Assembly (NCBI GenBank): GCA_050250375.1
Contig: JBFWOS010000002.1
Location: 77,547 to 141,546 of the forward strand
Reading direction: 5' to 3'
Source: Candidatus Omnitrophota bacterium
Lineage (GTDB): Bacteria; Omnitrophota; Gorgyraeia; Zapsychrales; Zapsychraceae
Length of the DNA: 64,000 nt
Shown here piece after piece: positions 48,549 through 54,350 of the stretch. Each line of letters starts with the position of its first letter. Positions within the stretch are counted from its first letter, which is position 1. Both the position numbers and the translations under genes were made by a program. The notes under the pieces were generated by a model, which saw only the letters and a program-made list of their open reading frames with translations, ran no database searches and was not told where the DNA came from.

Positions 48549-51500
48549 ATGTTTATTTTTTTTCGTGAGTTATTCACTAAAACTTCGCTGAGAATCTTTG
48601 TCTGGAGCGTAACCTTCTGTTTGCTTTTGGGACAATTTGCGGTCCCCGGAAACCTTTACGCACAGTCCAACATCATGCCTGAACCAGGGATGTTGATTAC
48701 ACAGAGTTCTTCGTTTTCTCCTTCTGTTCTAAAAGGCCTTACAATCCATCCTGACCAACCGTTCCATTTTGATTTCTTTGTTGATAAAGGTGAATCCAGG
48801 GGCAATGATATTGAATTTGAAGCCGAATCACTCAGGCTGATCAAATATTTTATGGCCTCTCTGGCCATTCCGGAGAACGACCTTTGGGTAAATCTTTCTC
48901 CGTATGAGCAGGACCGTATTATTCCCGAAGAGTTTGGGGTGACCGAAATGGGCCGGGACCTTTTGATGCAGGATTATCTGCTCAAACAATTCACGGCATC
49001 GCTCATGTATCCGGAGGAGCAGCTCGGAAAAAGATTCTGGGACCGCGTTTATAAACTGGCCTATCAGAGATACGGAACAACAGATATACCGGCCAACACG
49101 TTTAATAAAGTCTGGATCGTTCCGGACAAGGCCGTTATTTACGAACAGGACAATACGGCCTATGTTGTCGAGAGCCGATTGAAGGTTATGCTCGAGCAGG
49201 ATTACCTGAGTCTGACATCGGGATTCGTTAAATCCGATAAAGTTTCAGAAGTCAACGGACAATCTTTGGACAACATTTCCTCCGAAGTCATAAAAGAAAT
49301 TCTTATTCCGGAGATAGAGCGTGAAGTGAATGAAGGCGAGCATTTCGCCAAGTTGCGGCAAATATATCATTCCCTTATCTTAGCCACCTGGTATAAGGAA
49401 AATATACGACAAAGTCTCATTAATCAGATCTATTCCGATCAGAACAAGATGGAAGGGATCAATCTCGAGGATAAAGATATAAAGATGAGTATTTACAATC
49501 AGTACCTCGAGGCATTTAAGAAAGGGGTTTATAATTATATCCGGGAAGATTATGACCGGTATAAAAACCAGGTTGTTCCTAGACAATATTTTTCAGGCGG
49601 GATGAAGATCAAGCCGGTGATTACTAAAGCCAAAGCGATTAATACAACGGTATTCTCGGGAGATATGGCCATGATTTCAGCCAGATTTGACCTGGCCGGC
49701 GGCGGTAAGATTATTGATCAGAAATCTAATGCCGTTGATCAGGCGCAAAACGGTGAAACAAAAAAACAAGTTTCATCGACGTTGGCCGGAATGAACGAAT
49801 TATATGCCGCCATCATGGGGCAGATGTGGGATCCGTTGACACTCAACAAATTTTCTCAAAAGAAACTCGCCGATGTTGGCCGGGTCCGGAATGAGGAATG
49901 GAAACAAAGAGGATATGACCGTTTCCGGTCTCTGCCGGCTCAATTGATGCTTTATACCTGGTATGATGCCCAGGAAAGTAAGGTGCTCAAGTTCGAAGAA
50001 AATTTAACGGCCGTGATTAATCATGCATCGGATGAAGAAAAACTCAAGGCTCATTGGGCCCGTGGAATAAAAACCCTGTATCATTTGAGATTTCAGGGAA
50101 ACCATCCTGAGAGCTTTGAGCGGGCATATTTAGATCATTATTTCTTACAGCAATCAATTCATCAATATGTTGCTCGTCTCATTAATCATGACGCCGAAAC
50201 CATTCCCATGGAATATCTGTGGGGATTGGTGGCCATGCTCGATCCGATGGTCTATCACCCGCATTTTTTAAAAGAAGACTGGGGAAATGATGCCGCCCTG
50301 GCCATACCTTCGGGGGAAGCCAGGTTGATTATGCAAAAGAAGGCCGCCGACCTCATGCTTTCTTTATTTGAAAAATTTGATCAGGAAAAATTAACCCGTC
50401 TTTTAGAAAGGGCCTTTCGTGTAACGCCGGAAGAATGGGATCAGGCGGGTTACCGTTTACCGTATGTTGATTTTGCGGACGATAAGAACGGGTTTTTCTT
50501 TTTGTTTCAAAAAATTGAAGTCGATCCAGATAACACGCAAGACCAGATATTTTTGTTGGCCAGATCCAGGGAATACCTCGAAAAACATGTGACCTTTGCC
50601 GATGCCGGTGCGAAGACCGAAAAAAATGGTTTATTCCCGGACAGCCGGGCGAAATCCGAATTTACCTCCCCCTCACCGGACGATCCATTAAAACAAAGGA
50701 TCAGAGCCGTCATCGAGAAGTCTGAGAAAGATCATTTATATTATTATCGTCTGGTGTATGGTTCTAAATTTTTCCGTGACACAACCGGGATCACATTTGA
50801 GATTGAACAGCCGCAACCTGTTTACGAAACAAATGATTTTAATGAAATCCGCGACATAGTCATCGCATGGCACAAAAGAGGACTGCAAACGATGTATATG
50901 ACCAAGATGACTGCGAATGGTGAGGTGGATCTAAATACATATTGGAAACATCTAAAACTGTTTTACATTGGCGACCGCGAACATCCTAAATCCATCCTGA
51001 TTGCTGGCACGAATTATCCGAGCGGGAATATATTGCAGATAGAGTTTATGGCTACTGACCCGCAGTTTGAAGGCCGTGGTTATATCAAAAAACTGCTAGC
51101 AACGGTTATCGAGCGGTACCAACGAGATTATGAAATCGGCGGGGTATTTCTTTTTGATGACGTCGACTATTTGAAGGAAATCGGATTTAGACATGAGAAT
51201 GGTGAATACCGTTACAGTTCCCCGGTTACTGTTGAATCGGTCCAACAAAAAGATGAATCCATGGTTGGTGCTGTTAATCATTTTATGGAAGAACGATCTC
51301 ATGAACTGAAACGATTATTCGAACAATCCACAACGGTAACAGCCGATAAAGCCAGATTGTTGTCTTTACAGTGGCGTTCGGCAATGATGAAGACTTGGGA
51401 TGATGGCAAGTCAATTATTCATACGGCCGAGGAACTGGGAGAAATCGGTGCGCGCATGAATGCGTTATGGAAGGAAGCCGGATTCGACCGGTATGGTTCC

Positions 51501-54350: not shown

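Follow-up and report, generated by a model that had tools for sequence, protein, structure and literature searches.

A Large Omnitrophota Family with Constant Ends and a Variable Middle

Within a stretch of 64,000 nucleotides (nt) from a Candidatus Omnitrophota bacterium (assembly GCA_050250375.1, contig JBFWOS010000002.1, positions 77,547 to 141,546; hereafter, the window), the open reading frame (ORF) at 48549..54350 on the + strand encodes a Sec-exported modular protein of 1933 amino acids (aa), which belongs to a large family restricted to Omnitrophota. The frame shared by the members of this family comprises a signal peptide, a head of ~310 aa, variable enzyme or scaffold cassettes, D-x-A-M/V junctions, and a tail of ~60 aa. 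We hold this descriptive part of the account with high confidence. The gene is preceded by a predicted riboswitch of the cyclic di-GMP (c-di-GMP)-I class with a terminator-type expression platform, and we regard it as reasonably probable that the product is a c-di-GMP-induced exported enzyme carrier in which head and tail are constant and the cargo is swappable.

A protein database search with the 1933-aa sequence produced more than 3,731 significant matches, and all the named source organisms among them were Omnitrophota/Omnitrophica, as the first-pass annotation, made from the DNA letters and their translations, had correctly guessed. The 120 best of these matches were mapped onto the query, which revealed that the region of aa ~15-355 is common to all 120 (44-61% identity) and the region of aa ~1841-1903 to 114 of them, with the middle region common to almost none. 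The lengths of these 120 proteins range from 1,084 to 3,340 aa. Across the family as a whole, the shortest members have about 750 aa and the longest exceed 3,700 aa, so that the size emphasized in the first-pass annotation is ordinary here. Likewise, the protein described there as being of an unrecognised family has a great many paralogues, all built on the same fixed head and tail. When one genome per GTDB species was scanned, at least 575 head-encoding stretches were confirmed, and the best 80 of these include up to 7 loci (10 genes) in a single metagenome-assembled genome; tandem copies or pairs of family genes are frequent in the GTDB loci. Nevertheless, neither the head nor the tail, nor the duplicated module or the C-terminal domain, is covered by a named family: whole-protein searches of Pfam, NCBIfam, and PDB sequences yielded nothing except a weak GNAT match, and profiles built for the head, the module, and the C-terminal domain found no match among PDB sequences.

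The family-defining head lies at 48675..49613 (+; aa ~43-355), directly after the signal peptide, and shares 50-60% identity with its counterparts in the database proteins. At the opposite end, the family-defining tail at 54069..54257 (+; aa ~1841-1903) extends from GGIDFTPNRLDLEIHRD to LVPVILRIQPVTQLPFLFG and is followed by 30 variable residues; in the query it reads GGIDLNP...PVIINITPVTNLPLLLG. The tail consensus of the family is GGIDLNPxxLDLQIKRDGNGVPLPxxxQPIxNMxIxGFxPVIINITPVTNLPLLLG, after which come 0-68 variable, often acidic residues, and a GGI[DN][LF] tail was observed in 55 of the 71 complete family ORFs of the GTDB loci. The query carries the membership pattern GGID[LF]...PVIIN..PV..LP.LLG within about 100 aa of its C-terminus and exhibits all three features by which the family was tested, namely, a head after the signal peptide, the tail, and cargo separated by junctions.

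Export Signal and Soundness of the Gene

The ORF opens with an ATG and runs for 1933 codons to its stop, reproducing exactly the coordinates and length of the first-pass annotation, whose two quoted peptide strings were both found in the translation. Its Sec-type signal peptide, recognised by sequence features at 48549..48662 (+; aa 1-38), has a predicted cleavage site between LYA and QS. The N-terminus, MFIFFRELFTKTSLRIFVWSVTFCLLLGQFAVPGNLYA followed by QS, displays basic K/R residues, a single hydrophobic segment at aa 12-36, and then a small-x-A motif followed by Q; hydropathy windows of 19 residues across the protein revealed no transmembrane (TM)-like window besides aa 12-36. These features extend to the family, in which the site corresponding to A38-Q39 is nearly invariant. 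Signal-peptide n- and h-region features were present in 95 of the 102 family N-termini and an A-Q/E cleavage site in 88, and the mature N-terminus after the cleavage site is conserved as LP.PG.M. The earlier claim of an exported protein therefore stands, with a site conserved family-wide. A lipoprotein signal was also considered and rejected for want of a lipobox and of any conservation of the Cys at aa 24. As a separate observation, the public gene call of the identical database protein (P0001) begins at an internal TTG (codon 25; window 48549-48620), so that most of the signal peptide is lost, and automated gene calls may conceal the export signal in other members of the family.

Alternatively, the N-terminal helix could persist as an uncleaved anchor at the membrane's cytoplasmic side, with the enzymes organising the metabolism and signalling of the producer itself. 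Such an arrangement would suit the cytoplasmic chemistry of the cargo described below; moreover, nearly half of the long Omnitrophota proteins have been read as TM-anchored with cytoplasmic domains (10.64898/2026.06.07.730766), and topology predictions have been called unreliable for proteins of this kind (West-Roberts et al., 10.1101/2023.11.21.568195). However, the positive-inside rule, applied to the K/R residues ahead of the hydrophobic segment, puts most of the protein outside, and the near-invariant small-x-A|Q site together with the conserved LP.PG.M start would be hard to explain without cleavage. We consider this arrangement improbable and retain an exported carrier as the preferred reading.

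The first-pass annotation had also named an assembly chimera as a circumstance that could overturn it, and a decayed pseudogene fusion of unrelated genes was considered alongside. Nothing was found in favor of an artefact of either kind. The identical protein P0001 is encoded on a separate 63,658-nt contig and was recorded in 2 samples, collinear orthologues with 70% identity (P0002-P0004) come from other samples and sequencing runs, the GC content is uniform across the 5.8-kb gene, and the reading frame is uninterrupted, with head and tail at its two ends both fitting the family frame. All these observations count against an artefact, which we regard as extremely improbable.

Cargo Variation and the Junction Motif

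Between the constant ends, the Pfam annotation of the 120 best matches revealed a broad collection of cargo. Represented are phosphoglucomutase, phosphoglycerate kinase (PGK), glucose-6-phosphate isomerase, enolase, glyceraldehyde-3-phosphate dehydrogenase (GAPDH) with aldolase, hexokinase, and UDP-sugar pyrophosphorylase, as well as HATPase, PP2C, RelA/SpoT, Ser/Thr kinase, and response-regulator receiver domains. The cargo also includes a UbiB kinase with an M48 peptidase, many S-adenosylmethionine (SAM) methyltransferases, histidine phosphatase, NUDIX, phosphoribosyltransferase, radical SAM, glycogen-synthase-type glycosyltransferases, and HEAT repeats. About half of the family matches have zero Pfam domains in the precomputed annotation. 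Where enzymes were recognised, they were complete rather than fragmentary, as illustrated by P0101, whose PGK produced a full-profile match of 347 bits and whose enolase scored 147 + 289 bits.

The cassettes are punctuated by a short motif, D-x-A-[MV]-[hydrophobic], which occurs 287 times in the 120 family proteins against 51 occurrences expected by shuffling, a 5.6-fold enrichment. In the query, the first such motif (DMAMI, 49662..49676, +; aa 372-376) comes after the head, and the others are located at aa 1286 (after the second module copy), 1480 and 1505 (after the methyltransferase fold), 1835 (before the tail), and 1919 (near the C-terminus), making six outside the head. The same placement is evident in P0101, in which the order is PGK (1660-2065), DAAML (2075), enolase (2090-2540), and DFAVL (2551), and in P0085, in which DAAML at 426 immediately precedes GAPDH (438-766). 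Insertions and deletions of cargo between close orthologues also begin at junction motifs: P0002 and P0003 have an extra NUDIX domain between two of them, and P0004 lacks the C-terminal domain through a deletion that begins just after DAAMTAE. The junctions may be points of processing or of recombination, the motif being perhaps a site of cleavage, perhaps a joint left by recombination, or perhaps a linker.

If the junctions were protease sites, the protein would be a polyprotein precursor from which free enzymes are released after export, an arrangement that could be combined with a carrier, a surface coat, or a membrane tether. The enrichment of the motif and its location exactly between complete domains speak for this, as do the M28/M20 peptidase gene conserved two genes downstream and the cleavage of giant proteins into several products proposed by West-Roberts et al. 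(10.1101/2023.11.21.568195). On the other hand, the motif is only 4-5 residues long and could instead link domains structurally or be a scar of recombination, the query has no dedicated protease domain, and none was consistently found beside family genes. We consider release by cleavage unlikely, although less so than retention on the cytoplasmic face.

Cassettes of the 1933-aa Protein

The cassettes of this copy are two all-alpha module copies, a GNAT-like domain, a methyltransferase-fold domain, and an alpha+beta domain that matches no known family. The first module copy (49803..50792, +; aa 419-748) is all-alpha by homology with the second (51372..52370, +; aa 942-1274), which is all-alpha with a model confidence (pLDDT) of 65-94 and has no sequence match in PDB. 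The duplication reported in the first-pass annotation was recovered, aa ~419-748 and ~942-1274 sharing 32% identity over 349 columns (E = 3e-57). Out of 1.84 billion proteins, a profile of the module retrieved no more than 55 representatives. For 36 of these, the protein is 1,000-7,375 aa long; the remainder are in shorter proteins or fragments. Some of the module-bearing proteins have a head and a tail, and the largest ones have neither. The module contains invariant H, H, E, D, and D residues, which were the sole basis on which a metal-dependent hydrolase was tried as a reading.

The GNAT-like domain (50820..51188, +; aa ~758-880) contains QFEGRG, which fits Q-x-x-G-x-G and falls inside the stretch matched by PF00583 (aa 821-868); motif A of GNAT proteins, through which acetyl-CoA is bound, is Q/R-x-x-G-x-G/A. 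The PF00583 match scored 18.5 bits (E = 0.0024), below the gathering cut-off of 20.7, and similarly weak matches occur at the homologous place in P0002 and P0003 (18.7 and 20.2 bits). PDB sequence matches to GNAT proteins were weak, and the model of the region consists of mixed strands and helices (pLDDT 60-80), the output of the fold search being filled by methyltransferases. The earlier assignment is thus weakly supported, with a score that stays under the Pfam gathering threshold.

The next domain, at 52470..52997 (+; aa ~1308-1483), exhibits the seven-stranded Rossmann-like fold characteristic of class I SAM-dependent methyltransferases. Structure prediction of aa 734-1933 produced a model of 1200 residues with a mean pLDDT of 71, and a Foldseek search was dominated by methyltransferases, which made up all of its top 50 matches (best E = 3.7e-5); the fold of aa 1308-1483 is a confident assignment. 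The glycine-rich motif I (E/D-x-G-x-G-x-G) was absent, the query reading IKMIGSAETPQ with a non-canonical IGSAETP core, and the region had no match in Pfam or among PDB sequences. The methyltransferase-like domain of the first-pass annotation is accordingly upheld at the level of fold and lacks both the canonical motif and a sequence-model match. Both domains were indeed found in one polypeptide as had been noted; nonetheless, since this pairing is one among many swappable cargo sets, it does not define the architecture as had been proposed.

The last cassette, an alpha+beta domain modelled with high confidence (53058..53999, +; aa ~1504-1817; pLDDT 90-98), had no match in Pfam or among PDB sequences, and its homologues (26-35% identity) are cargo in P0006, P0007, P0030, P0031, and P0033. 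The order of its conserved elements (a strand bearing an invariant Lys, a helix with R/E, then FIRNSND behind a helix and FDFD behind a strand) brought a protein-kinase-like fold into consideration; profile comparison with Pkinase- or UbiB-carrying family members was negative and did not confirm it. Separately, profile comparison weakly linked (E = 0.028) aa 1152-1249 of the UbiB/M48 carrier P0054 with the core of this domain (FIKYYS...IRDILGFDIG...VFIRE), of which that stretch may be a divergent copy.

A Predicted c-di-GMP Riboswitch in the Leader

The region directly upstream of the gene contains an element overlooked in the first-pass annotation. A match to the c-di-GMP-I riboswitch aptamer (RF01051) spans 48221..48371 on the + strand, the sense strand of the gene, scores 59.9 bits (gathering score, 35; E = 3e-9), and ends 178 nt before the ATG. 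The aptamer carries an insertion of ~70 nt in the P1b loop and an extended closing helix. Upstream of it, a consensus scan detected a sigma-70-like promoter candidate (48185..48213, +; TTGAAG, 17-nt spacer, TG-TATATT), which is kept in the orthologous leaders of loci L079 and L080. Downstream, the minimum free energy (MFE) fold places an expression-platform element at 48375..48410 (+), composed of a hairpin (48375-48395) and TTTATCGGCT, the latter being complementary to the 5' strand of the aptamer, AGCCGATAAA (48221-48230); this combination recurs in L013 and L036. An intrinsic terminator with an 11-bp stem and T7 follows at 48427..48458 (+), supported by both a scan and the MFE fold, and the ATG is located 90 nt after it. 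In the MFE fold, the terminator forms in any case, and the switch may be of either sign (on or off).

Conservation of this leader was examined across the family loci by a regular-expression screen combined with Rfam. The entire leader, riboswitch included, is conserved in the two closest orthologous loci (L079 and L080), and riboswitches of the same class occur on the same strand directly 5' of family genes in three further genomes (L013, L036, and L062), where the family gene of L036 encodes a 2,817-aa PGK + enolase carrier. In each of these five riboswitch-bearing loci, a stem with a T-run separates the aptamer from the start codon. In L062, the terminator ends only ~20 nt before the ATG, which therefore leaves no space for a separate promoter. 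The riboswitch was not found in 14 other family loci by Rfam nor in the rest by the regular-expression screen; because these loci are without it, the element would govern a minority of the paralogues.

Two side observations concern these leaders. In the window, the interval between terminator and ATG (48460-48548) is strongly conserved across the three orthologous leaders and contains two promoter-like sites (TTGATT/16-nt spacer/TATTAT and TTGCAA/17-nt spacer/TATACT), so a second, riboswitch-independent promoter is possible there. In L036, another c-di-GMP-I riboswitch (GGC variant, 12894-13059) lies just 3' of the family gene and precedes ORFs at 13062-13316 (84 aa) and 13529-14980 (483 aa, radical-SAM/SPASM-like, with CNFSCLYC), which by their sequences look like a c-di-GMP-controlled peptide-maturation pair.

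Genomic Context

Gene-neighborhood analysis revealed that the 1933-aa gene splits the trp operon, with trpG-trpD-trpC-trpF at 45130-48106 and trpB-trpA at 57116-59085. The full order is prfA-prmC-aroA-trpG-D-C-F, riboswitch, 1933-aa gene, 100-aa ORF, M28/M20 peptidase, 307-aa ORF, and trpB-trpA. An identical split was observed in the related genomes L079, L080, and L081, and the position 3' of trpF is held by family members in L001, L013, L019, L036, L079, L080, and L081. The cargo at this locus varies considerably: methyltransferase + histidine phosphatase, PGK + enolase, the NUDIX-added version, module + methyltransferase fold + histidine phosphatase, and two genes of more than 3,700 aa were among the arrangements found. 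Given that a syntenic position carries such different cargo, the cargo turns over at a single orthologous locus.

Immediately downstream is the 100-aa ORF (54442..54744, +), with CxxC...CPEC. L001, L079, and L080 also have it 3' of their family genes, and in L081 a related ORF is placed ~4 kb further downstream. The ORF of the window had no Pfam match in the precomputed tables and may be unrelated to the family gene. Besides the trp context, a search for conserved partners in 78 family loci detected only response regulators in 12 loci and histidine kinases in 6, which are the most frequent neighbors from outside the family, and found no protease and no secretion system. The response-regulator or histidine-kinase genes stand upstream of family genes in L003, L007, L020, L061, L063, L065, and others, which hints at two-component control of family genes where the riboswitch is absent. 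As a general feature of the window (1-64000), every long ORF reads along the + strand and the GC skew never turns negative, its cumulative value climbing steadily to 4.6; this suggests a single long leading-strand stretch.

Possible Role

Under the c-di-GMP-induced carrier that we favor, head and tail would be the constant parts recognised by the cell machinery for export, anchoring, or delivery, and would take the cargo past the inner membrane, either onto the surface of the cell or into a prey or host cell that is attached. c-di-GMP is the usual signal of attachment, and here it would decide the timing of production, coupling it to attachment. The cargo enzymes would be the payload, acting on or in prey-derived cytoplasm; we place their action on or in the cytoplasm of another cell because so much of the cargo needs ATP, NAD, SAM, acetyl-CoA, or phospho-relay partners. 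Such a site of action would fit both the proposal that Omnitrophota live as predators or depend on hosts (PMC10066038; PMC12583861) and the reading of their gigantic proteins as conflict systems (PMC12419801). Similar mixes of enzymes have been reported in long Omnitrophota proteins, and a signal peptide or TM helices are present in 94% of these (10.1101/2023.11.21.568195; 10.64898/2026.06.07.730766; PMC10066038; PMC12419801). An effector-like or surface role, as the first-pass annotation had suggested, remains the most plausible reading, and delivery into prey specifically is conceivable, though we lean against it.

Several points weigh against the carrier proposal. The export, localisation, and function of the protein are predictions from its sequence, and the signal peptide was called by eye and simple counts. 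The head model, of moderate confidence, had no match to a known translocation or anchoring fold, and the tail in isolation is unfolded in the model (pLDDT below 50). No secretion-system genes flank the query gene, which sits inside the trp operon, and the riboswitch occurs in only ~5% of the sampled family loci. With regard to the cargo, the methyltransferase and GNAT domains could each be catalytically dead, since motif I is degenerate and the GNAT match is sub-threshold, and, should the predicted topology be mistaken, the glycolytic cargo could equally well support the metabolism of the producing cell.

A different arrangement outside the cell must also be weighed, in which the protein is fixed to the outer envelope by its head and its enzymes form a surface-displayed, cellulosome-like coat that acts outside, on material released from prey or the environment, with no delivery into cells. 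c-di-GMP riboswitches typically govern surface proteins, the protein has a signal peptide and no further TM segment, and HEAT-repeat scaffolds and glycogen-synthase/glycosyltransferase domains are common cargo, all of which speak for such a coat. An extracellular "coat" and the pre-processing of sugars have also been proposed for giant proteins in the literature (10.1101/2023.11.21.568195; PMC10066038). Nevertheless, much of the cargo (PGK, GAPDH, hexokinase, kinases, receivers, methyltransferases, and GNAT) depends on ATP, NAD, SAM, acetyl-CoA, or phospho-relay partners that are unavailable extracellularly, and no known anchoring domain was detected in the query by Pfam, NCBIfam, or the head model. 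We judge the coat rather unlikely, and less so than the polyprotein precursor, and continue to favor the carrier. The most far-reaching form of that proposal, in which head and tail together would make up a phylum-wide, hitherto undescribed chassis that exports and delivers interchangeable cytoplasm-type enzymes (whole glycolytic enzymes, kinases, and acetyl- and methyltransferases among them), possibly into prey, with junction-processed polyproteins and some copies switched on by c-di-GMP through a riboswitch, is put forward quite tentatively, as we find it no more probable than the coat.

Comparison with Known Systems and Implications

Large exported multi-enzyme proteins are an already known phenomenon in Omnitrophota. 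Archaeovorins have been described as long multi-enzyme proteins with a signal peptide or TM segments (10.1101/2023.11.21.568195), and a "multi-enzyme metabolic cluster" class was delineated among the long proteins of the phylum (10.64898/2026.06.07.730766). The present family resembles them in the phylum, the signal peptide, the role proposed at the predator-prey interface, and the way in which a single polypeptide combines domains of the methyltransferase, NUDIX, glycolytic, sugar-nucleotide, receiver, and HEAT kinds; the duplicated module of the query is also found in proteins of 4-7.4 thousand aa, although these larger module-bearing proteins lack the head and the tail. Archaeovorin-type proteins differ in size (10-147 thousand aa against 1.9 thousand aa in the query, and genes of more than 90 kb against 5.8 kb) and have many TM helices, whereas the query has only its N-terminal hydrophobic segment. 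In addition, SecA-like, glycosyltransferase, and peptidase domains were not detected in the query by Pfam, and its neighbors are trp genes, the 100-aa ORF, and the M28/M20 peptidase rather than type II secretion and pilus genes. In the papers searched, we found no mention of the head/tail frame, the junction motif, or the riboswitch.

Among systems of other bacteria, there is an analogy, and not one of homology, with the MARTX toxins (Vibrio RtxA), in which conserved ends also flank variable, strain-specific effector enzymes that need host cytoplasmic cofactors, and in which cassettes are swapped by recombination. In contrast, MARTX toxins contain glycine-rich A/B/C repeats along with a cysteine protease domain for their processing and a C-terminal type I secretion signal, none of which was found in the query by Pfam and NCBIfam, and they have no Sec signal peptide, which the query does. 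A second resemblance is with cargo bearing the C-terminal domain (CTD) of type IX secretion, LPXTG, or PEP-CTERM, which shares the Sec signal peptide, arbitrary domains, and a short conserved C-terminal element present in many paralogues per genome. The query tail, however, matched no sorting-signal model in NCBIfam or Pfam and has no TM helix with a basic tail; unlike the type IX CTD, its model presents no Ig-like fold or beta-sandwich, and those systems have no conserved 310-aa head.

The predicted regulation also has precedents. c-di-GMP-I (GEMM-I) riboswitches control adhesins, pili, and secreted proteins in Vibrio and Clostridioides, and the leader described here is alike in having an aptamer above the Rfam gathering score, a terminator next to it, and a gene for an exported protein downstream. 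It differs in the ~70-nt insertion and the extended closing helix of its aptamer, and, to the extent that the literature we searched shows, its host phylum and the gene family under its control are both novel.

Omnitrophota are widespread, uncultured, and ultra-small bacteria that are thought to live off other cells. If the account given here is true, a single conserved frame used thousands of times would provide a searchable handle on the interaction machinery of the phylum, in which head and tail would serve as markers of the secretome and the junction motif as a candidate processing signal. The riboswitch would add a testable regulatory input that ties c-di-GMP signalling to the family and can be assayed in vitro without culture. 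Finally, proteins annotated as "phosphopyruvate hydratase," "phosphoglucomutase," or "methyltransferase" in Omnitrophota may be exported cargo rather than housekeeping enzymes, which would affect metabolic reconstructions of these organisms.

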